DNA of 64,000 bases from Dehalococcoidia bacterium (GTDB taxonomy: Bacteria > Chloroflexota > Dehalococcoidia > Lucifugimonadales > Australimonadaceae): the NCBI GenBank assembly GCA_965261385.1, contig CBDHDB010000001.1, positions 737,145 to 801,144 of the forward strand, read 5' to 3'. Below are positions 45,348 through 59,637 of the stretch, in pieces (the first letter of the stretch is position 1; every line of letters starts with the position of its first letter). The notes under the pieces are model-generated. The model was not told the DNA's origin, ran no database searches, and saw only the letters and a list, made by a program, of their open reading frames with translations. Position numbers and translations under genes: made by a program.

Positions 45348-45875
45348 ATGACCACGTTGGCAGTGAGCAGCCCGACGATGACAGCGATAGGCCGGCCCAG
45401 CCTGGAGGAGTTGGTTGACCGGGTGGTGGACGCCCTCTTCTTCGGCAAGCGCGAGAGGAAGCCGGAACAGCGAATGACGCGGACGCTCCGCGAGGCCCCG
45501 GCGCAGAGCGTCCATGAAGGGCGAATGGACCAGAGCATGGCGAGGGCGGTCCACGAGGCGCGGCGGCTGCGGCAGGCCGGCGACCTCGACGCGGCGCTGG
45601 CGGCCCTGGCCGGCGCGGACATGTCCACGGCGACGGAGCAGGAACGCCGGTGGGCCTACGCCGAGTGGGTGGGCCTGGCCCGGCGGCGGTTCGCAGACGG
45701 CGGGGCGATGCTCTACAGCCCCGGCACGGGTAAGGCGGCGGTCCTCGCTCCCCGCGACGACGGGACCCTCGAGGTCCTGGCGGCGCTGGGGATGCGCTGG
45801 CGGCCGGGCCGGGTCGTCTCCCGTCGGAGCCTGCGGGGGCTGAAGCCCCTGGGGGGAGGCGCGCCATGGTCGTAG
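45348..45875 (+). CDS. Hypothetical protein
   Basis: 175 aa with an AAGGAGGA RBS. Its stop overlaps the primase start. Confidence 0.5.
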   Translation: MTTLAVSSPTMTAIGRPSLEELVDRVVDALFFGKRERKPEQRMTRTLREAPAQSVHEGRMDQSMARAVHEARRLRQAGDLDAALAALAGADMSTATEQERRWAYAEWVGLARRRFADGGAMLYSPGTGKAAVLAPRDDGTLEVLAALGMRWRPGRVVSRRSLRGLKPLGGGAPWS

Positions 45876-46924
45876 CCAACGCGCCGGTCGTGGACATCCC
45901 GGCGTTGAAGTCGCGCCACCCGTTGGGGGACGTGGTGGAGGCGTCGGGAGTCCAGCTGCGTGGAAGGGGCAGGGTCCGGCAGGGCGTCTGCCCCTTCCAC
46001 GAGGAGGTCGAGGGCAGCTTCACCGTGTACGGCGACTCGGAGCGGTTCTACTGCTTCGGGTGCGGGGCCGGCGGAGACGTGCTGGATTTCGTGGGGCGCG
46101 TCGAAGGCCTGACCCTCGCAGAGTCGATACGGCGGCTGGCTGGCGGCCCGGGGCGCAGGCCCTGGGCCGCCAGCCGTCCGGCCGGTCCGCGGCGGCCCCC
46201 GGACGCCGCTCCGCCTCCCAGGGACCCCAACCTGCTGACGGCGGCGGCCCGGTTCTACGCCGGGCAACTCCGCCGTCGCCCGGAGGGGCGGGCGTACCTG
46301 GCCTCGCGGGGCGTCGGCCCCGCCGCCGCAGCCCGCCTGGGCCTCGGCTATGCGCCGGGCGGGGGGCTGCGGCCGGCCCTGGAGTCCCTGGGCTTCTCCG
46401 AGCCGCGCCTCAGGGACTCCGGGCTGTTCATGGCGCGCGGCGCGGAGCGGTTCGCCGGGATGGTGGTCGCGCCCGAGATCTCCGGCGGCCTCGTCCGCTG
46501 GCTCGGGGGCCGGGCGGTCGATCCCGACCGGACTCCCCGGTTCCAGGCGTTGCCCGGCCCCAAGCCGGTGCTGGGCCTGGGGCGTCTCGGCCGCGCCCCG
46601 CTGTGGGCGATCGTCACGGAGGGCGTCTTCGACTGGATCGCCCTTGCAGGCTGGGAGTTCCCGGCCTGCGCCGCCCTGGGCGCCCAGGGCGTTGAGCGGG
46701 TCGCCGGCGCCCTCCGGGGCAGCGCCCGCGTCTTCCTTGCCTTCGACGCAGACGACGCGGGCCGGGAGGCAACGGAGCGGCTTCTGGCCCTGCTCGGGCG
46801 CAGGGCCGCCGCCGTCACCCTTCCCCCCGGCGTCGGCGACGTGGCCGAGCTTGCGGCGCTTCCCCACGGGCGCGCCACCTTCCTCGGCCTCTTGACAGCG
46901 GCGGCGCTCTCCGCCCGCTCGTAG
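45866..46924 (+). CDS. Element-encoded DNA primase (CHC2 zinc finger + Toprim)
   Basis: CPFHEEVEGSFTVYGDSERFYCFGCGAGGDVLDFV, then Toprim VTEGVFDWIAL...LAFDADDAGREA. Confidence 0.85.
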   Translation: MVVANAPVVDIPALKSRHPLGDVVEASGVQLRGRGRVRQGVCPFHEEVEGSFTVYGDSERFYCFGCGAGGDVLDFVGRVEGLTLAESIRRLAGGPGRRPWAASRPAGPRRPPDAAPPPRDPNLLTAAARFYAGQLRRRPEGRAYLASRGVGPAAAARLGLGYAPGGGLRPALESLGFSEPRLRDSGLFMARGAERFAGMVVAPEISGGLVRWLGGRAVDPDRTPRFQALPGPKPVLGLGRLGRAPLWAIVTEGVFDWIALAGWEFPACAALGAQGVERVAGALRGSARVFLAFDADDAGREATERLLALLGRRAAAVTLPPGVGDVAELAALPHGRATFLGLLTAAALSARS

Positions 46925-47103
46925 CCCCTCGCCGCTTTCCTGCGGGTCTCTCGGCCCGCCCCCTCGCCCGTCCCCACGCTCACCGCCCAGGAGGACCCAT
47001 GCCCAATGCACGACGGGCCCTGCCCGCACACGGATTCCCATGGAGGAGTCCGCGCCGGCCATTCGCTTAGGAACACGCAACACAGACAGAAGGAGACACG
47101 ACC

Positions 47104-47976
47104 ATGTTCAACAGGAACGGAAGCAACAACGGACCCAGCGACGGGACGGGCGACGGCATCGTCCACATCAACGGCAACGGGCGCCAGCCCGACGCCGCCC
47201 CCGCATCGAGCACGGGGCAGGCCATCGTCGGCGAGCACGACCTGCTCTGGGACGGGCTCTCGCCCACGGTGACGGAGCAACTGAACAACCCCCTCGACCC
47301 TGCCCTGGTCTCGCAGCGCAAGGGCCGGGCCAACCGCGACTACGTCTACGTCGAGGGCCGGACGGCCATCGATCAGGCGAACCGGATCTTCGGCTTTGGG
47401 GGCTGGGGATACGAGGTGGTGGGCGAGGTCACCCAGTGGCAGAACGAGCACGCGGACCCGCAGACCGGCGAGGTCAAGCGGGTCCGCTCCTACGCCGCGA
47501 CGGTCAAGGTGACCGTGCCCGGCGCGCCCTCCCGCACCGACGTGGGGTTCCACACCGTGGCGGAGGAGAACGGGGAGGGCCATGAGACGGCGTACAAGGG
47601 ATGTGTCACGGACGGGCTGAAGCGGGCGCTGCGCAGCTTCGGGGCCCAGTTCGGGAATGCCCTGCACGGCGACGGCGAGACGGACGCCGTCGCGTCCGTC
47701 TCGGAGCAGGCCCTGGCGCCATCCCTGCGGAAGGCGCTGGTGGGCCTGGGGGCGTCCCAGGGATTGGGCGAGCAGCAGGTGCGGGAGGCGGTCAGGAGCA
47801 GGACGGGGAAGGACTTCGAGGAGCTCCGCGCGTCGGAGCTGGCCCGGATGGTCGAGGGCGCGGCGGTCAAGCTGCAGCAGGCCCGGACCGTGGAGGCCGC
47901 TCCCCAGCCGGCCGCGCCAGCGCCGGCCGCGTCCCGACAGGCTGCCGGAGACACGGAGATGAAGGCCGCGGCGTAA
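47104..47976 (+). CDS. Rad52/Rad22-family single-strand annealing protein
   Basis: LDPALVSQRKGRANRDYVYVEGRTAIDQANRIFGFGGWGYEV...KGCVTDGLKRALRSFG is the Rad52-type core. Confidence 0.75.
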   Translation: MFNRNGSNNGPSDGTGDGIVHINGNGRQPDAAPASSTGQAIVGEHDLLWDGLSPTVTEQLNNPLDPALVSQRKGRANRDYVYVEGRTAIDQANRIFGFGGWGYEVVGEVTQWQNEHADPQTGEVKRVRSYAATVKVTVPGAPSRTDVGFHTVAEENGEGHETAYKGCVTDGLKRALRSFGAQFGNALHGDGETDAVASVSEQALAPSLRKALVGLGASQGLGEQQVREAVRSRTGKDFEELRASELARMVEGAAVKLQQARTVEAAPQPAAPAPAASRQAAGDTEMKAAA

Positions 47977-48084
47977 CCCGCCGCGGGACAGCGCAGTCAT
48001 AACGGGGCCGTCTCCACACATGGGGACGACCCCGTTCTCATCCGTCCGATCGAGTCAACCGGAATAACGGGAAGGAGACGAGAG

Positions 48085-48351
48085 ATGAGCGTGACGAACG
48101 ACACGATGGTCGACCAGGTGGAGGAGGGCCTCGCCCTGCTGTGGTTCGAGATGGAGGAGGCGGGGCACGCCGGGTTCCAGGAGGAGATCGAGGAGGTGGG
48201 CCGCCTGTTCCCCGTGCCGGAGGGCAGCCCCTTCGGACGCCGCGTGATCGAGCGGGCGCACGACCTCTTCGAGCGGGTCCGCGCCGAGTTCGCGCCGATG
48301 GGCCGCAGGCCGGTCCCGTGCCCCCACTGCGGGGACGCGGCGGCCGCGTAA
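48085..48351 (+). CDS. Small acidic hypothetical protein with a C-terminal CPHCG
   Basis: 88-aa ORF with a GGAAGGAGACGAG RBS. Confidence 0.45.
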   Translation: MSVTNDTMVDQVEEGLALLWFEMEEAGHAGFQEEIEEVGRLFPVPEGSPFGRRVIERAHDLFERVRAEFAPMGRRPVPCPHCGDAAAA

Positions 48352-48454
48352 GCGGAGCAGGAGGGAGACGCTCCGAGACCGGAGCGCACACGGCGACAGC
48401 TGGCCCCGCCAGCCCGCCGCCGCGCACGACGGACGCTACGGCGGACGCAGCACA

Positions 48455-48487
48455 CGGGGCCGCTTCCCCACCGAGGGGGCGGCCCCG
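48455..48487 (+). repeat. GC-rich intergenic stem-loop, CGGGGCCGC...GCGGCCCCG family
   Basis: 9-bp stem read directly from the sequence, upstream of ssb copy 1. Confidence 0.7.
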
Positions 48488-48544
48488 CCCATTCCACCGG
48501 GCGCGGCAAGGAGCCGCGTCACATCACACGCAAGGAGCACTGCA

Positions 48545-48940
48545 ATGCCGAAGACCATCAACCGAGTCGAGCTGCTGGGCCGCGTCGGGACCGACCCCGA
48601 GATGAAGCACACCAACGGCGGGACGGCCGTCGCCCAGCTGCGGCTGGCCACCGACCGCCCCCGTCAGAACGGGGAGACCGAGACCGACTGGCACACCGTC
48701 ATCTGCTGGTCCAAGTTGGCCGAGGCCGTCAACCAGTACGTCCACAAGGGCGACCGGCTCTACGTCGCCGGTCGGCTGGCCCAGAACAGCTACGAGACCT
48801 CCGACGGCCAGCGCCGCCACTCCACCGAGGTCCACGCCGCCGAGGTCGTCTTCCTCGACTCCCGCAACGGCGCCAACGCCAAGGCGGACGCCACGGGCGC
48901 GGCCGTCCCCGCCGGGCAGGCGGCCGACTCCCCCTTCTAG
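48545..48940 (+). CDS. ssb: Single-stranded DNA-binding protein, copy 1
   Basis: OB-fold N-terminus MPKTINRVELLGRVGTDPEMKHTNGG...WHTVICW...GDRLYVAGRLAQNSYE and C-terminal tip DSPF. Confidence 0.9.
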   Translation: MPKTINRVELLGRVGTDPEMKHTNGGTAVAQLRLATDRPRQNGETETDWHTVICWSKLAEAVNQYVHKGDRLYVAGRLAQNSYETSDGQRRHSTEVHAAEVVFLDSRNGANAKADATGAAVPAGQAADSPF

Positions 48941-48983
48941 CCCACGGAACGCATACGACGCCCGCCACGGCGGACGCAGCACA

Positions 48984-49016
48984 CGGGGCCGGTTCCCCGA
49001 CGGGGGAGCGGCCCCG
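48984..49016 (+). repeat. GC-rich intergenic stem-loop, same family
   Basis: 8-bp stem between ssb copies 1 and 2. Confidence 0.65.
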
Positions 49017-49068
49017 CCCATTCCACCGGGCGCGGCAAGGAGCCGCGCCACATCCAAGGAGCACTGCA

Positions 49069-49464
49069 ATGCCGAAGACCATCAACCGAGTCGAGCTGCT
49101 GGGCCGCGTCGGGACCGACCCCGAGATGAAATACACCAACGGCGGGACGGCCGTCACCCAGCTGCGGCTGGCCACCGACCGCCCCCGTCAGAACGGCGAG
49201 ACGGAGACCGACTGGCACACCGTCATCTGCTGGGCCAAGCTCGCCGAGGCCGTCAACCAGTACGTCCACAAGGGCGACCGGCTCTACGTCGCCGGACGCC
49301 TCGCCCAGAACAGCTACGAGACCCAGGACGGCCAGCGCCGTCACTCCACCGAGGTCCACGCCGCCGAGGTCGTCTTCCTCGACTCCCGCAACGGCGCCAA
49401 CGGCAAGGCGGACGCTGCGGGCGCGGCTGTCCCCGCCGGGCAGGCGGCCGACTCCCCCTTCTAG
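49069..49464 (+). CDS. ssb: Single-stranded DNA-binding protein, copy 2
   Basis: Near-identical to copy 1, differing at a handful of residues. 131 aa, ending DSPF. Confidence 0.9.
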   Translation: MPKTINRVELLGRVGTDPEMKYTNGGTAVTQLRLATDRPRQNGETETDWHTVICWAKLAEAVNQYVHKGDRLYVAGRLAQNSYETQDGQRRHSTEVHAAEVVFLDSRNGANGKADAAGAAVPAGQAADSPF

Positions 49465-49507
49465 CCCACGGAACGCATACGACGCCCGCCACGGCGGACG
49501 CAGCACA

Positions 49508-49540
49508 CGGGGCCGCTTCCCCGACGGGGGAGCGGCCCCG
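49508..49540 (+). repeat. GC-rich intergenic stem-loop, same family
   Basis: 9-bp stem between ssb copies 2 and 3. Confidence 0.7.
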
Positions 49541-49594
49541 CCCATTCACACCGGGCGCGGCAAGGCCGCGCCACTACACGCAAGGAGCACTGAG

Positions 49595-49658
49595 ATGCCG
49601 AAGACCATCAACCGAGTCGAACTGCTGGGCCGCGTCGGAACGGACCCCGAGATGCGCT
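49595..49658 (+). CDS. ssb: ssb copy 3, exon 1 (codons 1-21 plus 1 nt)
   Basis: ATG 49595 follows the same CAAGGAGCAC leader. The exon encodes MPKTINRVELLGRVGTDPEMR, then homology to copies 1 and 2 stops exactly where GTGCG begins. Confidence 0.8.
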
Positions 49659-50165
49659 GTGCGCCGCGTCACGCGGCATAGGATTCCCGATTTAGTCAGG
49701 AGAGATTCGGAGGAAGTCTCTGGGCCAACCGACCCACCTGGCGGCGAAAGCCAAAGGGGACAACAGCATGTCGGTAAAGCGGCTACAGCCTGAAAGCGTT
49801 GTAGGGCTGGTTCCGCAAGGCCCGCGCGATACGGTGAAAGCTGGATTGCTTGAACCCCAGTTCCCAAGCGGTGAAATCGGCACCCACCGGTAGAACGCTT
49901 GCAACCCGGTGCCACTCATTACGACGGTCTGTAGCGTGGACTGTTGCACCTCCGATGAGTGGGCGATGACCGATGAGGCCTATTCAAGGGGACGAACGGG
50001 GCACCTAAGTCGTGCTATCACGTCCTATGTCAACGGAACGCGGGATTGCCTACGGGGGGAGACCCCCACGGCAACGGAGCCCTCGTAGTAGTCCGAGCCG
50101 GGGAAAGCCCGGCACATGGCGAAGGAGGGCAGGTGTCAACGACGGAATACGACAGAGAGGTACTC

Positions 50166-51941
50166 ATGATGAGAACAGCCGAAACTGTACTGAACGTCAT
50201 ACGCGAACGCGGAGAACGAGGATTGCCGCTGGAGAACATCTATCGGCTACTGTACAACCGGAACCTGTACCTGCGGGCCTACGGTCGTCTCTACTCAAAC
50301 CAGGGAGCGATGACCAAGGGCACCACCGCAGAGACCGTGGACGGCATGTCACTGGCGAAAATCAACCGCATCATCGACGAGCTTCGTTACGAGCGGTTCC
50401 GGTGGACGCCGGTGCGCCGGGTCAGCATCCCCAAACCTAACGGGACGACCCGCGCCCTGGGCATACCGACGTGGACGGACAAGCTGCTGCAAGAGGTCAT
50501 CCGGATGATTCTGGAGGCCTACTACGAGCCGCAGTTCTCCGACCACTCTCACGGCTTCCGGCCCGACCGGGGATGCCACACCGCCTTAAACGAGGTGGTC
50601 ACTCACTGGACCGGTGCCCGCTGGTTCGTCGAGGGAGACATCAAGGGGTGCTTTGACAACATCGACCACGAGGTCCTGTTGTCGGTGTTGAGCGAGAAGC
50701 TCCACGACAACCGATTCCTACGCCTGCTCAAGTACCTACTGAAGGCAGGCTACCTTGAGGACTGGACATACGGCCGCACATTGAGCGGTACGCCGCAAGG
50801 TGGCGTGGTCAGCCCCATCCTCGCTAACGTCTACCTAGACCGGTTGGACAAGTTCGTCGAAACAGTGCTCATTCCAGCCCACACCCAAGGCACAGAACGA
50901 AGGCGCAATCTCACATGGAAAGCGTTGAACAGTCAAATGTCCTATCACCGGGGAAGGGGAAACCATGCGCAGGCGTTGGGACTGCGAAAGCAGATGCAAC
51001 AATTGCCATCAGGAGACCCCAACGACCCTGGCTACCGACGACTGCGATATGTCCGCTACGCGGACGACTTCGTGCTGGGCTTTATCGGGCCAAAGGCCGA
51101 AGCCGGGCAGATCAAGGATTCCTTGGAGACATTCCTGCGCGACACGCTCAAGCTGGAGCTATCCACGGAGAAAACTCTTATCACCCACGCCACCAGCCAG
51201 GCGGCGCGGTTCCTCGGTTACGAACTCATAAACCAACAAGCCAATGATAAGCACGACCCTACTGGGCGACGCAAAGTCAATGGCCGTATCGGATTACGGG
51301 TTCCCGCTAAAGTCATCGAACAACACTGCAGCGCCTACATGGGCAACGGCAAGCCGGCACACCGCGGCGGACTCATACACGATGATGACTTCTCCATCGT
51401 GAGCAGGTCCCAAGCGGAATTCCGGGGCGTCATTCAGTACTATCTCTTGGCCCTCAATGTCTCCCGTCTCGGGAGGTTACAGTGGGTCATGAGCCAGTCG
51501 CTGACCAAGACCCTTGCGGCAAAGCACAAGACCACACGCCGTGAAGTGCTTCGACGCTATAAGAGCGTCGCACAGACCGAGCATGGGGAACGTGCCTGCC
51601 TCAAGGTCGTGGTAGAGCGGGGCAATGGGAAACGCCCACTGGAGACGCAGTTCGGCGGCATACCCCTGAAGCGGAATAGGCAGGCCATCCTCGTAGACCA
51701 ACAGCCTCAACGGTACAGGTTCCACCGCAACGAGCTTATCAAACGGCTCCTAGCGGACGAATGCGAGTTGTGCGGGTCAACAGTGGACATACAAGTTCAC
51801 CACGTCCGCGCGCTTCGCGACCTGAACGTGAAAGGCCAAGGCCAAAAGTCCGAGTGGATACAAATCATGGCCGCAAGGCGACGCAAGACCCTCGTGGTCT
51901 GCCAACTCTGCCACATGGACATCCACGCAGGGCGCAAGTAA
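50166..51941 (+). CDS. Group II intron-encoded protein: reverse transcriptase / maturase / HNH endonuclease
   Basis: RT motifs RALGIPTWTDKLLQEV, HGFRPDRGCHTAL and YVRYADDFVLG. The HNH is CELCGS..VHHVRALRDL...CQLCHMDIHAG. I chose the start at ATG 50166 (MMRTAETVL). Confidence 0.9.
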   Translation: MMRTAETVLNVIRERGERGLPLENIYRLLYNRNLYLRAYGRLYSNQGAMTKGTTAETVDGMSLAKINRIIDELRYERFRWTPVRRVSIPKPNGTTRALGIPTWTDKLLQEVIRMILEAYYEPQFSDHSHGFRPDRGCHTALNEVVTHWTGARWFVEGDIKGCFDNIDHEVLLSVLSEKLHDNRFLRLLKYLLKAGYLEDWTYGRTLSGTPQGGVVSPILANVYLDRLDKFVETVLIPAHTQGTERRRNLTWKALNSQMSYHRGRGNHAQALGLRKQMQQLPSGDPNDPGYRRLRYVRYADDFVLGFIGPKAEAGQIKDSLETFLRDTLKLELSTEKTLITHATSQAARFLGYELINQQANDKHDPTGRRKVNGRIGLRVPAKVIEQHCSAYMGNGKPAHRGGLIHDDDFSIVSRSQAEFRGVIQYYLLALNVSRLGRLQWVMSQSLTKTLAAKHKTTRREVLRRYKSVAQTEHGERACLKVVVERGNGKRPLETQFGGIPLKRNRQAILVDQQPQRYRFHRNELIKRLLADECELCGSTVDIQVHHVRALRDLNVKGQGQKSEWIQIMAARRRKTLVVCQLCHMDIHAGRK

Positions 51942-52067
51942 TCCGCAATCGCACCCGTCGGTAGTATCTGACCTCAGACAACTGAGGCCAGAGCAGGTGT
52001 AACAATGTCATTCCGCTGGGATTGATGATACACTACGAGGCATAATGCGTCCTTGGAGTGCTGATTC

Positions 52068-52445
52068 ATGCCAATAGGACCTCTGCTCTTAGCGAGTGTA
52101 CCGTGGACAGAGCTTATCAAAGCTGCTCCTCGGATGATGGAATCTGCCATAAAGCTCTACGAAAACGTGAGCGGTCGGCAACCACGACGCCCATCACGAG
52201 GTACCACCACGGTTGATGACATTCCCGCCTTGCGCGAAGACGTAACAGAACTCCAGAGACATCTAGATATGTTGGAGAGCACTGATAAAACCCAGGCCGA
52301 ATTGATCAAAACCCAGGCCGAATTGATCGCCGAGTTGATTCGGCATCAGGCGTCCTTAGCGCGCTGGATAATCGTGCCAACGCTAACCTCGGTCGTGACG
52401 GGTATCGTCGCAATAGCTGCTCTCGTCGTTGTCGTCCTACAATAA
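52068..52445 (+). CDS. Low-GC extra ORF inside the intron: coiled-coil protein with a C-terminal TM anchor
   Basis: 125 aa. A heptad region contains the duplicated TQAELIK (a 2 x 21-nt tandem repeat at 52287-52328), and the C-terminus IIVPTLTSVVTGIVAIAALVVVVL is hydrophobic. The ORF lies between the IEP stop and domain V. Confidence 0.5.
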   Translation: MPIGPLLLASVPWTELIKAAPRMMESAIKLYENVSGRQPRRPSRGTTTVDDIPALREDVTELQRHLDMLESTDKTQAELIKTQAELIAELIRHQASLARWIIVPTLTSVVTGIVAIAALVVVVLQ

Positions 52446-52628
52446 GAAGGAAAAGTAGTCCCGACATTTGCAACCATTCATGCCGGGGCCATCGGGCCTA
52501 GACTCGGTAATCCTCCCAGATAGGACGTCCCGACCCCATCGCGTGCCCCCCCTCGGTCACCCTCGCGCCCATTAGCGTAGGGTGTTGGCCGAAAAAGACG
52601 AGACCTTCCGACGTATGAAGACACTGGA

Positions 52629-52662
<34 letters not shown>

Positions 52663-52725
52663 GGAGGGGGGCCGACGGAAAAGTGCTCTGATAACTCGGA
52701 GTAACTCGCCGGCGGCCTACCCTAC

Positions 52726-53054
52726 ACACCAACGGCGGGACGGCCGTCACCCAGCTGCGGCTGGCCACCGACCGTCCTCGCCAGAACGGGGAGACGGAGA
52801 CCGACTGGCACACCGTCATCTGCTGGGCCAAGTTGGCCGAGGCCGTCAACCAGTACGTCCACAAGGGCGACCGGCTCTACGTCGCCGGTCGGCTGGCCCA
52901 GAACAGCTACGAGACCTCCGACGGCCAGCGCCGCCACAACACCGAGGTCCACGCCGCCGAGGTCGTCTTCCTCGACTCCCGCAACGGGGCCAAGGCCACG
53001 GCGGACACCACAGAGGCTGTCCCGGCTGGGCAGGCGGCCGACTCCCCCTTCTAG
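52726..53054 (+). CDS. ssb: ssb copy 3, exon 2
   Basis: The sequence resumes ..(Y)TNGGTAVTQLRLATDRPRQNGETETDWHTVICWAKLAEAV... in frame with exon 1 and ends DSPF. Confidence 0.8.
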
Positions 53055-53097
53055 CCCGAAGGCACATGCCGACGTCCGCCATGGCGAACGCAACACA

Positions 53098-53130
53098 CGG
53101 GGCCGCCTCCCCACCGAGGGAGCGGCCCCG
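53098..53130 (+). repeat. GC-rich intergenic stem-loop, same family
   Basis: 9-bp stem after ssb copy 3. Confidence 0.7.
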
Positions 53131-53183
53131 CTTCCGTTCCAGAACCGAATCACCACTCAATCATCCCCCAGAAGGAGGCCGAG

Positions 53184-53717
53184 ATGACCACCAAGACGAG
53201 GCAGCCCAAGACCCCTCTTGCGAGCCCGGAGCAGGCGCTGCTGGACGCCCTGCGGCGCAACCTGCATGTCCTGGGCGAGCTCGCTGTGCGCTACGACATC
53301 GAGACCAAGCCCCAGCGTTTCGCGGGCGATCTCCCCGCCGTCCACAGCCCGGAGGACGTGCGCCGGCTGCTGCAGCCGGAGATGGCGGGACTCGCCCAGG
53401 AGCAGTTCCGGGCGCTGCTGCTGGACCGGAAGAACCGGGTCGTGGGGCAGCGGGTGATCTACCAGGGGAACGTGAGCGCGGTCTCCTCCATCAGGACGGC
53501 GGAGGTGCTGCGCCCCGCCGTGGTCGAGGCCGTCCCCGGCGTCATCGTTGCTCATAACCACCCGTCGGGCGACCCGGAGCCGAGCCCCGAGGACGTGGCG
53601 GTCACGAAGGCGCTGGTCGAGGCCGGGAAGCTCCTGGACATCGAGGTGCTCGACCACGTGGTCATCGGCTGCCCCGGCATCGTCAGCTTCAAGGAGCGGG
53701 GCCTCCTCCCCGCCTAG
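53184..53717 (+). CDS. radC: RadC-like JAB/MPN domain protein
   Basis: JAMM motif IVAHNHPSGDPEPSPEDVAVTKAL...LDHVVIG. Confidence 0.85.
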   Translation: MTTKTRQPKTPLASPEQALLDALRRNLHVLGELAVRYDIETKPQRFAGDLPAVHSPEDVRRLLQPEMAGLAQEQFRALLLDRKNRVVGQRVIYQGNVSAVSSIRTAEVLRPAVVEAVPGVIVAHNHPSGDPEPSPEDVAVTKALVEAGKLLDIEVLDHVVIGCPGIVSFKERGLLPA

Positions 53718-53825
53718 AACACCTCACGCTGCAAGTCCGGCGGCGCATGCCGTCCGGCCCCCACGCGGGGAAGACGCTCCCCACGCGCCGCTCGAACGCA
53801 TCAACACCTATGAAGGAGACAACCC

Positions 53826-54464
53826 ATGCAAGCGACAGACCGCGCCCCCCACCCCGAAGACCTGTTCACCATCAATGCCGGCGGCTTCTCCGCCACCGCC
53901 GACGCCTTCGCCCGCGACCCCGGCTCCGACGGCCTCTGGTTCCTCTCCATGCTCGGTTCCCAGACGGCGGTAAAGGCCATCTGGGCCTCCCTCCTCAAGC
54001 AGCCGCCCGACCCCGCCCACCTCATCCGCGGCGCCGACGGGATGGCGCTCTCGGGGGGTTACCAGCGCTGCGTCATCCCCCCGGAGACCGTGGGGACCTG
54101 GACGACGAAGATCGCCCGGCTGCCGGTCTCCGGCGGCTGGCACGCGATGGTCTACACGACCCTCGCCGAGTTCGGCTCGGACCGCGACGCCTTCCTCCTG
54201 CTGGCCCAGAGCGCGGAGGACGCTCCGGCGCTCCACCACCGCTTCCTCGACCGCCGGAGCCCGCTGCCCCTGCACCGCTCCTGGTCGGACTGGCTCTGGG
54301 ACCGGGGCCTCCGGAGCGGCGAGGTGGTCCCCCTCCAGTCCGTGGGGCTCGCGGCCTACCGGTGCGACCCCGACGGCGAGCAGTTACGGGACGACCTCTC
54401 CGAGGCCGTGGCGTCGGGAGTCCTGACGCTGCCCGAAGAGGCGCCCGTTGCGGCGGCTGCGTAA
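53826..54464 (+). CDS. Hypothetical protein
   Basis: 212 aa with an AAGGAGA RBS. No motif recognised. Confidence 0.5.
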   Translation: MQATDRAPHPEDLFTINAGGFSATADAFARDPGSDGLWFLSMLGSQTAVKAIWASLLKQPPDPAHLIRGADGMALSGGYQRCVIPPETVGTWTTKIARLPVSGGWHAMVYTTLAEFGSDRDAFLLLAQSAEDAPALHHRFLDRRSPLPLHRSWSDWLWDRGLRSGEVVPLQSVGLAAYRCDPDGEQLRDDLSEAVASGVLTLPEEAPVAAAA

Positions 54465-54537
54465 GGAAGGGGCGGGCGCGCAAGGCCCGCTCACGGGTCC
54501 CATCGGCCTCACATCACACGCAGGAGACATCACGCCC

Positions 54538-55107
54538 ATGATCGATCACCAGCACGACGACGGCGGCCGGGAAGCCGCCGGCTACCGGGGCAAGACGGGC
54601 GACTGCGTCGTCCGCGCCATCGCCATCTGCGCCCGCCAGGACTATCGGACCGTCTACCTCACGATGGCCGAGCACATGAAGCGCAACGGCTACGCCGCGA
54701 GCGGCAACGCCTACGCGATACGGGAGCGCAACCGCAAAGCGCCCCGCCGCAAGGGCCAGTTCACCGCCCGGCGCGTCCAGGACCGCGTCCTCGAGCTCTA
54801 CGGCTTCCAGAAGGTCCGCCTCCCGGCGGGAGCGCGCCCGACCTTCACTGAGGCGCACCGCCGCTACGGGGACTGCATCGTCGGCACGACGAAGCACGCG
54901 GCGGCCGTCGTGGACGGGGCGCTGCGCGACATCTTCGACGGCCGCACCTACGAGTGGGCCAAGCCCCGGACGGAGTCCGCGTGGGACGTCTTCCGCCCGG
55001 CGGAACAGGCCGGCTTCGAGACGCGCGAGCGCAAGGCCCAGTCCGTCTGGGTGGAGACCTCCAGAGGGCAAGAGACAGACGAGACAGAGAAAGGAGCGAC
55101 GATATGA
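54538..55107 (+). CDS. Hypothetical protein with a possible Cys/His (papain-like) dyad
   Basis: ATG 54538 follows the CACACGCAGGAGA leader. The protein contains GDCVVRAIAI near the N-terminus and TKHAAAVVDG about 125 aa later. The stop has an ATGA overlap with the methyltransferase start. Confidence 0.45.
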   Translation: MIDHQHDDGGREAAGYRGKTGDCVVRAIAICARQDYRTVYLTMAEHMKRNGYAASGNAYAIRERNRKAPRRKGQFTARRVQDRVLELYGFQKVRLPAGARPTFTEAHRRYGDCIVGTTKHAAAVVDGALRDIFDGRTYEWAKPRTESAWDVFRPAEQAGFETRERKAQSVWVETSRGQETDETEKGATI

Positions 55108-56141
55108 GACTAGCGGCACAGGCCAAGGGGGGCTTCTACCCCACGCCGCCCCGCGTGATCGACCTGATCGCGGGGCTGGTCTCCGCCCCGGTCAGCTACC
55201 GCGGGCGGGGCCAGGAGGCGCTCCGCATCCTCGACCCCTGCTGCGGGGCCGGTGATGCGGCCGCCCGGCTGGCGGAGCGTCTGGGCAAACGCAACGGCCC
55301 GCCCATCGAGACCTTCGGGGTGGAACTGCACCGGGAGCGGGCGCAGGAGGCGTCGGAGCGGCTGGACCGCGCCCTCGCCGCCGACCTCTTCCAGACCTCC
55401 GTCGCCAACGGGGCCTTCGGCCTCCTGTTTCTGAATCCGCCCTATGACTACGATTCGGAAAACAGGCGGACGGAGCACGCCTTCCTCGTCCAATGCACCC
55501 GCTATCTGGCGGAGGACGGCCTGCTGGTCTTCATCGTTCCCCGCCAGCGGCTGGAAGTCTCCGCCCGGTACCTGGCCTCCCACTACCGGAATATCCGCTG
55601 CTGGGCGTTCCCCAGCCCGGAACGGGAGGTCTTCGACCAGGTGGTCCTCATGGGCTGCCGCCGGGCGGAGCCGCACCTCGACACCCACGCCGAGGCGCAG
55701 GTGCTGGAGTGGGCGGCGGGGGAGCTTGAGGAACTCTCGCGTCAGCCCTACCCCGTCGTGGACGCCCCCGCCGCGCCGGCGGGCGAGGTCCTCTTCGCCA
55801 ACCGCACCGTCGACCCCCTGGCGGCCGCTGCCGAGGCGCGGCGGTCGGGGCTGTGGGCCAGCGCCGGGGTGACCGATTCCCTCTGGCCCGCCAAGGATGC
55901 AAAGACCCGTCCGCTGATGCCGCTGCGGCGGGGCCACATGGCCATGCTGGTGGCGGCGGGCTTCCTGGACAACCTCTGCCTGGAGGCCAACGGCAGCCGC
56001 ATCCTGGTCAAGGGCAGGACCTCCAAGGAGGTCGTGCTGGCCGAGGAGACGGAGACCGCCGAGGTCTACCGGGACCGGCTGAAGACCACCGTCGTCGCCC
56101 TCGACCTGGACGGCGGCGTCATCACCGACATCGCCGCCTGA
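55104..56141 (+). CDS. Orphan N6-adenine DNA methyltransferase (NPPY)
   Basis: Motif I ILDPCCGAGDAA and motif IV LLFLNPPYDYD. No cognate nuclease is adjacent. Confidence 0.75.
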   Translation: MRLAAQAKGGFYPTPPRVIDLIAGLVSAPVSYRGRGQEALRILDPCCGAGDAAARLAERLGKRNGPPIETFGVELHRERAQEASERLDRALAADLFQTSVANGAFGLLFLNPPYDYDSENRRTEHAFLVQCTRYLAEDGLLVFIVPRQRLEVSARYLASHYRNIRCWAFPSPEREVFDQVVLMGCRRAEPHLDTHAEAQVLEWAAGELEELSRQPYPVVDAPAAPAGEVLFANRTVDPLAAAAEARRSGLWASAGVTDSLWPAKDAKTRPLMPLRRGHMAMLVAAGFLDNLCLEANGSRILVKGRTSKEVVLAEETETAEVYRDRLKTTVVALDLDGGVITDIAA

Positions 56142-56257
56142 GACGGTTCTACGAAGAGCCGCGTCACGAGGCCCCTTGGTCCCTCCGAGGACCACGGGTG
56201 CTCGCCCTCTCTCACGCAACCCCCAAGCGCATCCCCATCCAGGGAAAGGAGGAGCCC

Positions 56258-56485
56258 ATGCACGCCAAAGCCAGCCCCGCGCTCGACGTCGAGACCTGCG
56301 CCTGGTGTGAGCGGCCGGTCCGCTCCGGCGACCCCGTCGCCCAGACCGCCACGGTGGACATCATCGACGGAAGGGCCGCCGCCTCTCCGGCAAGGTCCTA
56401 CCACATCGAGGGCGGCTGCTACCACGCCGCCAAGCAACAGGAACAGGCGGCCATGGCCGCCCGCAGAAAGGCAGCCAACGCCTAG
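56258..56485 (+). CDS. Small Cys-containing hypothetical protein
   Basis: 75 aa with a GGAAAGGAGGAG RBS. It contains CAWCERP. Confidence 0.4.
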   Translation: MHAKASPALDVETCAWCERPVRSGDPVAQTATVDIIDGRAAASPARSYHIEGGCYHAAKQQEQAAMAARRKAANA

Positions 56486-56583
56486 ACGGTCCCCACGACG
56501 GGGCCGCGTCACGGGGCCTGTCTCCCACCGGAGGCCGGCCCCGCCTGTTTCACGCCAAAACCAAGATACAAGGAGAAGACCCC

Positions 56584-56787
56584 ATGGTCCTGAAAGGCGT
56601 CAACTGCCCCGCCTGCGGCGGGAGGGAATTCACACCGGAAGAGCTCGTCGAGGACGACGAGCTGACCGGCATCTACCTGCGGTGCGCGCGCGGCTGCGGC
56701 TTCTACTCCTACGAGGCGGGCGACCGCTGCGGCTGGAGCGCCGTCGGGCCGAATGAGGCCGACCCGTGCGCCCCGCCGCGCCGATAG
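56584..56787 (+). CDS. Small zinc-ribbon protein
   Basis: 67 aa with CPACGG...CARGCG and an AAGGAGAAG RBS. Confidence 0.45.
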   Translation: MVLKGVNCPACGGREFTPEELVEDDELTGIYLRCARGCGFYSYEAGDRCGWSAVGPNEADPCAPPRR

Positions 56788-56879
56788 GAGGCGCGCGCAG
56801 CCCGCATGCGCAACCACGGGACCGATGCGGACGGCCTCGCCTTCCGTCTCGGCTGCAAGACCATCAACCGGAGGACACC

Positions 56880-57200
56880 GTGACCACAACACCGAGAACC
56901 CACCCCGCGACCGCAGGCTGCCCGCAGTGCGAGCACGAGGTGGAGACGACCCTGTACGTCCGCTCCGACGGCGTCTCCGCATACGTCTACGGGCAGCACT
57001 GCCCCGCATGCGACGAGGCCGTGGCCATGGACGTGGAATTCGAGATGCCGGAACCGCCCCCACTGCGGAACCTCACCGAGTGCCACGCGCCCGGCTGCGG
57101 CAGCCAGCGCTTCAACCTGAATGTCGCAGGCGGCGTCTACTGCGCCAAGTGCGGCTCGCAACAGCGCAAGGCATGGCGTCTCGGCTATCCGCGCAACTAG
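56880..57200 (+). CDS. Small double zinc-ribbon protein
   Basis: GTG 56880 follows GGAGGA. The protein carries four Cys pairs: CPQC, CPAC, C..GC and CAKCG. Confidence 0.45.
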   Translation: MTTTPRTHPATAGCPQCEHEVETTLYVRSDGVSAYVYGQHCPACDEAVAMDVEFEMPEPPPLRNLTECHAPGCGSQRFNLNVAGGVYCAKCGSQQRKAWRLGYPRN

Positions 57201-57269
57201 GCGCGGAGCACGGCGGGAGGCCGCACGGCCCTCAGCGCGACGAGCAAGACGGAGCATCGATCCGCCCCA

Positions 57270-57301
57270 CGGGGCCGCGCTCCCCATGGGAGGCGGCCCC
57301 G
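57270..57301 (+). repeat. GC-rich intergenic stem-loop, same family
   Basis: CGGGGCCGC ... GCGGCCCCG upstream of the SNF2 gene. Confidence 0.7.
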
Positions 57302-57354
57302 CCCCCTGTCCCCGCCCCCCACCACACCCCCTCTCCCAGGAAAGGAGCAGACCC

Positions 57355-59637
57355 ATGGACCTGGCAGGATTCATCGACACGTACAAGGAAGCGATCGCCC
57401 GGCGGGTGGTCGAGTCCTACCCGCCCCTCTACCGGCCCTCCGACAACGGACGGCCCCTCCCCCTCCTCCTCCGCTCCCCTCTCGGCGCCCAGCGCGACGC
57501 CATCCAAGGCGCGGCCCTCTCCCTCGAAGCCCACCGGGGCACGACCGTCGTCGGCGAGATGGGCACCGGCAAGACCTTCATCGCCGCGGCAGCCGCCCAC
57601 ATGGCGGGCTTCAAGCGGGTCCTCGTGCTCTGCCCGCCCCACCTCGTCCGCAAGTGGAAGCGGGAGGTGGAGGAGACGGTCCCCGGCGCCCAAGCCGCCA
57701 TCGTGTCCTCCATCACCGACCTGGAGAAGCTCCGGCTCTCCACCGGCCCCGGCCCCCTCTTCGCCGTCATGTCCCGCGAGCGGGCGAAGCTGTCCTACCG
57801 CTGGCAACCCGCCGTCGTCGAGCGGTGGGCCGTCTCGGGCGGCAGGCTCATCCGGGCCGAGGAGACGGGGGAGCCCTTCAGAGTCCCCTGCTGCCCGGTC
57901 TGCTCCCGCCAGGCCGTGGACAAGGACACCGTGCCCCTGACGCCGGAGGAGATGTCGCGCAGGCGGCGCAGCTGCGCCCGGTGCGGCTCGCCCCTCTGGC
58001 AGGCCGACGTCCGGGGCCCCCGCCGCTACCCGTTGGCCGACTATGTCAAGCACCGGATGAAGGGCTTCTTCGACCTGCTTGTCGGGGACGAGGTGCATGA
58101 ATATAAGGGAAGGGGTTCCGCCCAAGGCGTCGCCGCCGGCGTGCTGGCCGACGCCTGCGGCAAGTCCCTCACCCTGACCGGCACGCTGCTGGGAGGGTAT
58201 TCGAGCACCTTGTTCCACCTCCTCTACCGGTTCTCCCCGGAGATCCGGACGGAGTTCGGCCGCTCCGACGAGCGCCGCTGGATCGAGCGGTACGGGTTCG
58301 AGGAGTTCACCCTCGGGAAGGACGACGGCGAGGCCGTCGAGGACGGGCGGTTCAGCCGCCGGAAGAAGTACCGGAAGGTGGTGCGGGAGCGGCCGGGGCT
58401 CGCCCCCTCCGCCCTCTTCCACCTGATCGGCAACAGCGTCTTCCTGCGGCTCTCCGACGTGGCGTCGGGCCTGCCGCCCTACGAGGAGCAGGTGCTCCTC
58501 TCGACCATGGACCGGGAGCCCGACGCGATGGGCCTCTCCCAGCGGGGGGCCTACGACCGGGTCTTCAACGCCCTGCGCCATGCCCTGGCGCAAGCGTTGG
58601 CGAAGGGCTCCAAGCGGCTGCTGGCCACCTACCTGCAGACGCTGCTGGCCTACCCCGACGGCTGCACGCGGGGCGAGACGGTCTTCGACCCGGCGACGGG
58701 CATCCCCATCGTCCAGGTCCCTCCGCTGTCGGAGGAGAAGCTCTACCCGAAGGAGCAGGCGCTGGTCGACCTCGTGGCGGCCGAGCGGCTCGAAGGGAGG
58801 AAGGTGCTGGTGTACGCCACCCACACGGGGACGCGGGACATCACCGGGCGGATGGACGACATCCTGACGCGGCACGGGTTCCGGGTCGCGGTGATGAAGG
58901 CCGACGCCGTGGCCCCCGACCGGCGGGAGGCCTGGGTGGCGGACCGGGTGAAGGAGGGCGTCGACGTCCTCGTCTGCCACCCCCGGCTGGTGCAGACCGG
59001 CCTGGACCTGATCGACTTCCCGACCATCGTCTGGTTCGAGACCGATTACAGCGTTTACGTCATGCGGCAGGCGTCGCGCCGGTCGTGGCGCATCGGGCAG
59101 ACCCGCCCGGTGAAGGTGGTGTTCATGTCCTACCGGAACAGTCTGCAGGCCGACGCCCTGAAGCTGGTGGCGAAGAAGCTGCAGAGCTCCCTCGCCGTCG
59201 AGGGGGAGTTGCCGGAGGACGGGCTTGCGGCCTACGGCGACGACGGCGACGACCTGATGCTGGCCCTGGCCCGCAGGATCGTCAGCGGCGACGAGGACGA
59301 AGACGAGGCGGAGACGGTGGAGGCGGTATTCGCCCAGGCCAGGGACGCCGAGGCCAGCGCCGAGGAATACCTGGTGGACGATGACTGGGAGGCCGTCGAA
59401 GTGGAGCCGGAGACCATGGCGGTCCATCACGACGAGGCTGGAACGGCCGCAGACAGCGGTTGCGGCGGCGAGGCCGTCGGGCCGCAGCGGTCGCTGTTCT
59501 CGTGGACGGAGTTCCTCGCGGAGGAGCAGGGCCGCAGCCGCAGCCGGAAGCCGAAGCCCGCTTCCGCGTCCCTCTTCGAGTGGGCGATGAGCATGGAGCA
59601 GGAGCGAGAGGAAGAGCCGGTCGGCGCGGGACGCTAG
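57355..59637 (+). CDS. SNF2/DEAD-like helicase with an inserted zinc-ribbon
   Basis: Motif I GEMGTGKTF, motif II DEVHEYKG, the insert CCPVCS...CARCGS, and helicase-C motif RRSWRIGQTRPV. ATG 57355 follows AAAGGAG. Confidence 0.85.
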   Translation: MDLAGFIDTYKEAIARRVVESYPPLYRPSDNGRPLPLLLRSPLGAQRDAIQGAALSLEAHRGTTVVGEMGTGKTFIAAAAAHMAGFKRVLVLCPPHLVRKWKREVEETVPGAQAAIVSSITDLEKLRLSTGPGPLFAVMSRERAKLSYRWQPAVVERWAVSGGRLIRAEETGEPFRVPCCPVCSRQAVDKDTVPLTPEEMSRRRRSCARCGSPLWQADVRGPRRYPLADYVKHRMKGFFDLLVGDEVHEYKGRGSAQGVAAGVLADACGKSLTLTGTLLGGYSSTLFHLLYRFSPEIRTEFGRSDERRWIERYGFEEFTLGKDDGEAVEDGRFSRRKKYRKVVRERPGLAPSALFHLIGNSVFLRLSDVASGLPPYEEQVLLSTMDREPDAMGLSQRGAYDRVFNALRHALAQALAKGSKRLLATYLQTLLAYPDGCTRGETVFDPATGIPIVQVPPLSEEKLYPKEQALVDLVAAERLEGRKVLVYATHTGTRDITGRMDDILTRHGFRVAVMKADAVAPDRREAWVADRVKEGVDVLVCHPRLVQTGLDLIDFPTIVWFETDYSVYVMRQASRRSWRIGQTRPVKVVFMSYRNSLQADALKLVAKKLQSSLAVEGELPEDGLAAYGDDGDDLMLALARRIVSGDEDEDEAETVEAVFAQARDAEASAEEYLVDDDWEAVEVEPETMAVHHDEAGTAADSGCGGEAVGPQRSLFSWTEFLAEEQGRSRSRKPKPASASLFEWAMSMEQEREEEPVGAGR

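Follow-up and report, generated by a model that had tools for sequence, protein, structure and literature searches.

The ~690-nt stretch that separates the IEP gene from domain V in a group II intron of a Dehalococcoidia (Chloroflexota) genome is most likely a cargo stem-loop, bounded exactly by the IEP stop codon on one side and the linker to domain V on the other in an intact intron, although no expression, splicing, or mobility data are available. The intron is located in a 64,000-nucleotide stretch of DNA, hereafter called the window, which belongs to a 4.23-Mb genome in two contigs (a MAG of an uncultured organism). The cargo loop would hold a complete translation unit composed of a Shine-Dalgarno motif, an ATG, and the gene of a 125-aa tail-anchored membrane protein. 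The slot is common to about a third of the intron lineage, with many different genes inside. The core of the original prediction, which was made from sequence alone and envisaged an extra, unusual gene riding in domain IV between the IEP and domain V, held.

Inference from established group II intron biology suggests that the passenger gene would be transcribed together with ssb as part of the intron RNA and would leave the ssb message on splicing. The passenger may be translated from the precursor or from the excised lariat by means of its own Shine-Dalgarno motif. Retrohoming would copy the passenger to new sites, and the intron would then act as a natural retroelement vector.

Structure and location of the intron

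The window contains three tandem ssb genes, and the intron interrupts the third of them after position 49658, with exon 2 beginning at 52726 (Table 1). The ends of the intron, GUGCG at 49659 and AC at 52724-52725, meet the GUGYG/AY criterion. The joined exons are in frame, with EMR followed directly by YTNGG, in agreement with the intact ssb copies, and the SSB reading frame is restored. Domain V is followed by domain VI, as expected, and the RF00029 score of 68.6 bits exceeds the gathering score of 40. The IEP contains a YADD motif and matches the Pfam families RVT_1 (1.3e-31), Intron_maturas2 (1.1e-13), and an AI2M-like HNH domain (1.9e-14). It also matches the LtrA protein of Ll.LtrB over its full length (PDB 5g2x, E 6.8e-120, residues 23-586). 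The 5' part of the intron is 82-85% identical in DNA sequence to other full copies; no structural model stands behind domains I-III. Because the splice boundaries are in frame, the encoded RT/maturase/HNH protein matches LtrA, and domains V and VI are recognized, the element is an apparently intact, LtrA-type mobile group II intron of the IIA / mitochondrial-like (ML) class, with splicing and retrohoming being inferred.

The module that hosts the intron (window 45866-59634) includes genes for a DnaG-like primase, a Rad52-family protein, the three SSBs (48545, 49069, and 49595), RadC, an unnamed 212-aa protein, a DUF6094 methyltransferase, and a SNF2/ResIII helicase, and a ThiF-family protein is also encoded nearby. 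Judging by the appearance of this gene set, the surroundings of the intron probably represent a conjugative-element module.

Table 1. Positions of the intron, its host gene, and the cargo features in the window
Feature	Position	Strand	Basis
ssb copy 3, exon 1 (21 codons plus 1 nt)	49595..49658	+	Alignment to intact ssb copies 1 and 2 ends after GAGATGCGCT
Group II intron, 3067 nt, 5' GUGCG, 3' AC	49659..52725	+	Boundaries set by ssb alignment
IEP (RT, maturase X, D, HNH endonuclease); start GTG 50133 or ATG 50166	50133..51941	+	
Extra segment, 668 nt vs 8 nt in the orthologous compact intron	51954..52621	+	blastn, window vs L096
Cargo-loop closing stem, 5' arm CGUCGG, then degraded GGUAGUAUC core	51956..51961	+	Unconstrained fold of 51942-52626
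Small conserved hairpin just inside the 5' arm	51967..51992	+	MFE fold
Shine-Dalgarno-like GGAG, 9 nt upstream of ATG	52055..52058	+	Sequence
Passenger gene, 125-aa tail-anchored membrane protein (predicted)	52068..52445	+	ORF, homologues, hydropathy, AlphaFold2 model
Perfect tandem duplication (2 x 21 nt, in frame, 7 residues), found only in the window copy	52287..52328	+	Sequence, TRF, homologue alignment
Cargo-loop closing stem, 3' arm CCGACG	52608..52613	+	Same unconstrained fold
Domains V and VI	52627..52725	+	Rfam RF00029, 68.6 bits, E 2.2e-11
ssb copy 3, exon 2	52726..53054	+	Alignment to ssb copies 1 and 2 picks up at ACACCAACGGC

The extra segment is an insertion closed by a conserved stem

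The IEP stop codon (51941) is separated from domain V (52627) by 685 nt, which confirms the predicted value of nearly 700 nt. The closest relative of the IEP among 80 loci from public genomes (L096, 85% identical) is encoded by an intron that occupies the same ssb position and is devoid of the segment. The window and L096 are colinear in blastn at 85% over 49507-51953 and again from 52622 on. The segment is an insertion relative to this orthologous intron. It had been described as visibly richer in AT than both the intron and the host, and this held in a modest form: the lower GC content of the segment (0.51-0.54) is genuine, but the difference from the IEP (0.56-0.61) and from the flanking host genes (~0.70) is not large. 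Since neither a sigma-70-like promoter nor an intrinsic terminator was found in the window's insert, an autonomous expression cassette is unsupported here. The slot of the window contains no second ORF beside that of the 125-aa protein. A twintron was rejected, as the window contains one RF00029 match, and thus one domain V, and one RT, and the ORF of the insert encodes neither an RT nor a maturase domain.

The unconstrained fold of the segment pairs residues 51956-51961 with 52608-52613 at a probability of 0.93-0.96. The closing stem of the window's intron is partly eroded in its core, and 6+2 bp are left. The consensus arms of the relatives, GGTAGTGTC and GACACTACC, are complementary in 16-18 of 18 distinct arm pairs. 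Most inserts begin with GGTAGTGTC, either at the IEP stop codon or ~18 nt past it, and are closed by GACACTACC at a distance of 8-13 nt ahead of the domain V linker. Compensatory changes are absent from the invariant 9-bp arms of the 18 pairs, and because this 9-bp core never varies, an RNA helix cannot be distinguished from an inverted repeat that functions at the level of DNA. The small hairpin just inside the 5' arm is kept in 10 introns that carry at least six different cargoes. Its covariation is weak, as only one-sided changes and no double changes were found among the 10 introns.

The stem could alternatively represent the 9-bp terminal inverted repeats of a MITE-like non-autonomous transposon with variable contents, which inserted into the intron by its own activity. 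The near-invariance of GGTAGTGTC and GACACTACC and the lack of compensatory changes between them are in line with this possibility. However, arm pairs with one mismatch occur outside introns at chance level in the 4.23-Mb genome (24 observed vs ~18 expected), and there are no exact-arm pairs outside introns in that genome. Furthermore, in every case the unit occupies one and the same nucleotide position, past the IEP stop codon and ahead of the linker to domain V, and neither a transposase nor a target-site duplication was seen. We consider the MITE-like explanation very unlikely, and a nested MITE- or IS-like transposon was rejected on the basis of the constant insertion point and the lack of an excess of arm pairs outside introns.

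The passenger gene belongs to a conserved protein family

The 125-aa ORF is a real gene of an uncharacterised protein family that is under purifying selection. An ORF of at least 125 codons appears in 3.4% of shuffles of the segment, and therefore the length of the ORF alone is weak evidence and homology decides. Three metagenome proteins (P0001-P0003) are 59-79% identical to the 125-aa protein, and their alignment contains 57 invariant columns. A profile search of 1.84 billion representatives identified 651 clusters at E<=1e-3, including 74 at <=1e-10, and the matching clusters are nearly all 100-135 aa in length and aligned over their full length. The dN/dS ratio is ~0.2-0.4 relative to four genomic homologues, which is a rough estimate since dS is saturated.

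The predicted position of the ORF and the perfect 2 x 21-nt duplication within it were both confirmed. TRF reports the duplication with a period of 21, 2.2 copies, and 96%, and the seven residues that it adds, TQAELIK, are missing from all seven aligned homologues. It is possible that the duplication signals relaxed constraint. The proposed C-terminal transmembrane anchor held as a sequence prediction. The only hydrophobic stretch of the protein is formed by residues ~100-124 (residues 97-125 in the hydropathy scan), with a 19-residue Kyte-Doolittle mean of up to 2.77, and the N-terminus is amphipathic and without a signal sequence. The protein thus meets the criteria for a tail anchor, namely a single C-terminal membrane segment and no N-terminal signal peptide; its insertion into a membrane is inferred from the sequence. 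The description of the protein as a coiled coil was not established. The AlphaFold2 model consists of a helix of residues 13-34, a disordered basic linker, and a long helix of residues 52-124, and has a low confidence (pLDDT 62). A coiled coil is plausible on the strength of the long helix, but it is not shown. The matches of the protein to the Pfam families SAB and FlxA are under their cut-offs.

The genomic context of homologues was read at 13 loci in other genomes, which do not include the three closest homologues P0001-P0003. Twelve of these are free-standing chromosomal genes in ordinary metabolic neighbourhoods, with no IEP, domain V, or arms nearby. Their neighbours include an isocitrate/isopropylmalate dehydrogenase (Iso_dh) gene and, elsewhere, an aldolase together with a CoA-transferase; another neighbour is an ORF that looks like an enoyl-CoA hydratase gene, with a RecA-like ORF close by (both identified by eye from translations). 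The thirteenth homologue, from genome G019 (L016 2907-3600, minus strand), is part of a 5'-truncated, decayed intron that keeps a C-terminal remnant of the IEP, canonical arms, a Shine-Dalgarno motif, an intact 102-aa ORF, and domains V and VI. The ORF of this fragment is 48% identical to that of the window, and its survival raises the possibility that a passenger gene may outlive its vehicle. The window's intron supplies the only copy of the protein family found in its own genome. A scan of metagenome contigs with the family alignment did not confirm any locus. The gene may have moved either from a chromosome to the intron or in the reverse direction.

The 125-aa protein has no match in Pfam, PHROGs, NCBIfam, or PADLOC, and tblastn searches of plasmid and phage records returned nothing. 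The protein atlas contains only unnamed clusters for it, and cluster look-ups gave no names. The original suggestions of a toxin, holin-like protein, exclusion factor, or addiction module remain guesses, with no family match and no partner gene found. A membrane toxin, holin, or addiction factor that stabilizes the intron or its carrier element would agree with the small size of the protein, its hydrophobic C-terminus, and its location on a selfish element inside a mobile-element module. Against this explanation, none of the four family databases and neither of the two sets of records provides a match, the slot holds no ORF for a partner such as an antitoxin, and the homologues are single free-standing genes beside metabolic genes. 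In addition, holins normally have N-terminal or multiple membrane segments, which counts against a holin. We regard this explanation as very unlikely. Our best guess, held with low confidence, is that the protein has an envelope function that helps the carrier element or the host, for example in surface exclusion or modification, because the contents of the slot across the family are strongly biased towards lipoproteins and small membrane proteins.

The cargo slot is shared by related introns

A sample of 82 junctions between the IEP and domain V was surveyed in this intron family, in which the IEP stop codon was located by tblastn and domain V by nhmmer. In 52 of the 82 the junction is compact, with the stop codon up to 20 nt from the domain V linker or overlapping it, and in most relatives this distance is 1-20 nt. 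The remaining 30 junctions are loaded with 300-1083 extra nt, mostly within the conserved stem. The statement that only a short stretch normally separates the IEP stop codon from domain V thus held for most relatives, but not for the 30 loaded ones. The insertion point is constant: every insert follows the IEP stop codon and precedes the linker to domain V. The slots contain ~20 different ORFs on the same strand as the intron, which encode mainly lipoproteins and small membrane proteins. At least eight cargo types have a lipoprotein signal peptide with a lipobox, approximately eight are small one- or multi-pass membrane proteins, and a few are soluble, as assigned by eye. Significant Pfam domains were detected in two cargoes (DUF6174, 7.7e-27, and DUF4377, 2e-11). 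A motif similar to the Shine-Dalgarno sequence, mostly GGAGG or AGGAG, precedes the first ATG in 13 of 26 distinct cargo ORFs. The 217-aa soluble cargo of L064 (4873-5523) has a weak, sub-threshold match to DUF429 (E 0.0039).

The window's genome contains five full introns and one 5'-truncated fragment, all six of which are loaded, each with a different cargo. The four further full introns (C2:41261-44402, 47090-50316, 2143015-2146090, and 2660929-2664187 on the minus strand) are 70-84% identical and have a different lipoprotein gene in each slot, one of which includes the DUF6174 domain. The truncated fragment (C2:2740283-2740917) consists of a 162-aa lipoprotein cargo, the 3' arm, and domains V and VI, and adjoins an ORF that looks IS-related by eye, without a family search. 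The cargo of L092 is related to this 162-aa lipoprotein and is shortened to 94 aa.

Loaded and compact introns are interspersed in the IEP tree, which requires at least 4-7 gains or losses of cargo, and the placement of the cargo-bearing introns in a single clade was therefore rejected. Introns with near-identical IEPs sometimes differ in the state of the slot, as do L019 and L087. The intron family is almost confined to the ssb-radC-methyltransferase-helicase module, which was found in dozens of Dehalococcoidia genomes, and uses approximately eight insertion sites there. Loaded copies at different sites are 93-98% identical to each other, whereas their flanks are 78-83% identical, and an IEP ORF of at least 520 codons is kept in 26 of the 30 loaded junctions. 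Because of these differences in identity and the retention of the IEP, it is likely that the loaded introns still home; the evidence is indirect and comes from sequence comparison.

Two introns inserted at the same helicase site, L003 (3968-4540) and L031 (4960-5553), carry lipoproteins whose signal peptides and both flanks are 91-94% identical. The mature parts of the two proteins are unrelated, which suggests a possible exchange of cassettes within the slot. In ten introns (L062, L003, L081, L063, L031, L082, L034, L041, L067, and L030), the last ~60 nt directly before the 3' arm contain a GC-rich hairpin followed by CTTGCTTTT, which resembles an intrinsic terminator. The window's insert does not have this element. 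The sequences of the terminator-like stems vary by cargo type, and the hairpins could have been left over from the 3' ends of mRNAs that were acquired through template switching.

The best-sampled cargo family, lipoprotein B (L081, L063, L004, L031, and L082), has a dN/dS ratio of ~1 (0.6-2.5), and all five ORFs are open. The IEPs of the same introns have dN/dS ratios of 0.2-0.35. The ratio for lipoprotein B fits neutral drift as well as diversifying selection, and we do not favour one over the other. The inserts of L058 and L065 (438 and 493 nt) have canonical arms and no convincing ORF, and perhaps represent non-coding or decayed cargo.

Alternatively, the insert could be decaying junk, left over from a nested insertion or a recombination event that occurred accidentally, with an ORF that is still open by chance and is of no use to the intron or the host. 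This view is supported by the degraded core of the window's closing stem, the internal duplication found in the window copy alone, the dN/dS ratio of ~1 of lipoprotein B, the loaded introns L058 and L065 without a convincing ORF, and the fraction of shuffles that reach 125 codons. Nevertheless, the window's ORF belongs over its full length to a family of 651 clusters with a dN/dS ratio of 0.2-0.4 and a conserved architecture, and its Shine-Dalgarno motif is correctly spaced. Intact ORFs of ~20 different kinds occupy the slot, significant Pfam domains are present in two of these, and a cargo is intact even in the truncated intron of G019. Decaying junk is a very unlikely explanation. The remnant of a nested insertion, which was also among the original suggestions, is unlikely because the same slot holds ~20 different intact genes. 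Neither of the two outcomes that would have weakened the original prediction, a routine non-coding expansion without a conserved ORF in related introns or an ORF conserved nowhere, was borne out.

Discussion

Our preferred interpretation is that of a cargo stem-loop in an intact intron. A bolder reading is that the lineage is a natural retroelement gene vector, in which the domain IV stem-loop is an exchangeable cassette site, introns exchange genes with one another and disseminate them by retrohoming among conjugative-element modules, and the surface-exposed cargo is under diversifying selection. We lean slightly against this reading when its parts are taken as one joint claim. Small envelope-protein genes would in this scheme be captured, possibly by template switching of the RT to cellular mRNAs, an idea that fits the terminator-like hairpin plus T-run at the ends of several inserts. 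If true, the bolder reading would describe an RNA-based counterpart of the integron.

The prevailing view is that group II introns are streamlined retroelements with no gene other than that of their reverse transcriptase. A natural cargo-bearing lineage would show that ribozyme-based elements can move host genes, and would offer a design for cargo-tolerant targetrons. It would also raise the question of what use small envelope proteins are to the mobile elements of Dehalococcoidia. A full-text search of the literature found only engineered cargo introns and no natural ones, and absence there is no proof of novelty. A natural intron with an IEP plus a passenger gene may be undescribed, as far as the searched literature goes.

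The intron resembles those of the Ll.LtrB type in its GUGCG...AC ends, domains V and VI, RT/X/D/HNH IEP, and location among genes of a mobile element. Unlike the known form, in which the IEP alone is in domain IV, it has a second, unrelated gene in a stem-loop added after the IEP stop codon. Compact relatives from the same lineage have the standard Ll.LtrB-type form. The intron variants catalogued in a 2015 review comprise twintrons, LAGLIDADG introns, ORF-less introns, altered splice sites, and alternative splicing; an IEP combined with an unrelated passenger gene is not among them. Like these variants, the cargo-bearing introns depart from the standard one-ORF retroelement design and show that domain IV tolerates extra sequence. 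They differ from these variants in that they contain no second intron, no homing endonuclease replaces the RT, and the splice sites are unaltered.

The passenger ('moron' or accessory) genes of prophages and transposons and the cassettes of integrons are, like the intron cargoes, small, variable, often directed to the envelope, and located in a fixed slot, and they share the property that the contents differ between close relatives. In contrast to these systems, no recombinase or att-type site is evident in the introns; the vehicle is a ribozyme-based retroelement, and the cargo would pass through an RNA copy and reverse transcription.

Engineered targetrons, in which cargo has been placed in domain IVb of Ll.LtrB (Frazier 2003, Plante and Cousineau 2006, as cited in PMC8524655; PMC8524655 itself), are a parallel in design, as they too hold a foreign gene in the loop of domain IV and not in the catalytic core. 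The insertion efficiency of targetrons is reduced by exogenous sequences, and there are limits to the size of the cargo (PMC8524655). The cargo of targetrons is carried by retrohoming, and the same is inferred for the natural introns, the cargo of which measures ~0.3-1.1 kb. Unlike targetrons, the introns described here are natural, keep their IEP in cis, and carry the cargo past the IEP, enclosed by a conserved stem, and their cargoes are diverse and apparently exchangeable within one lineage.
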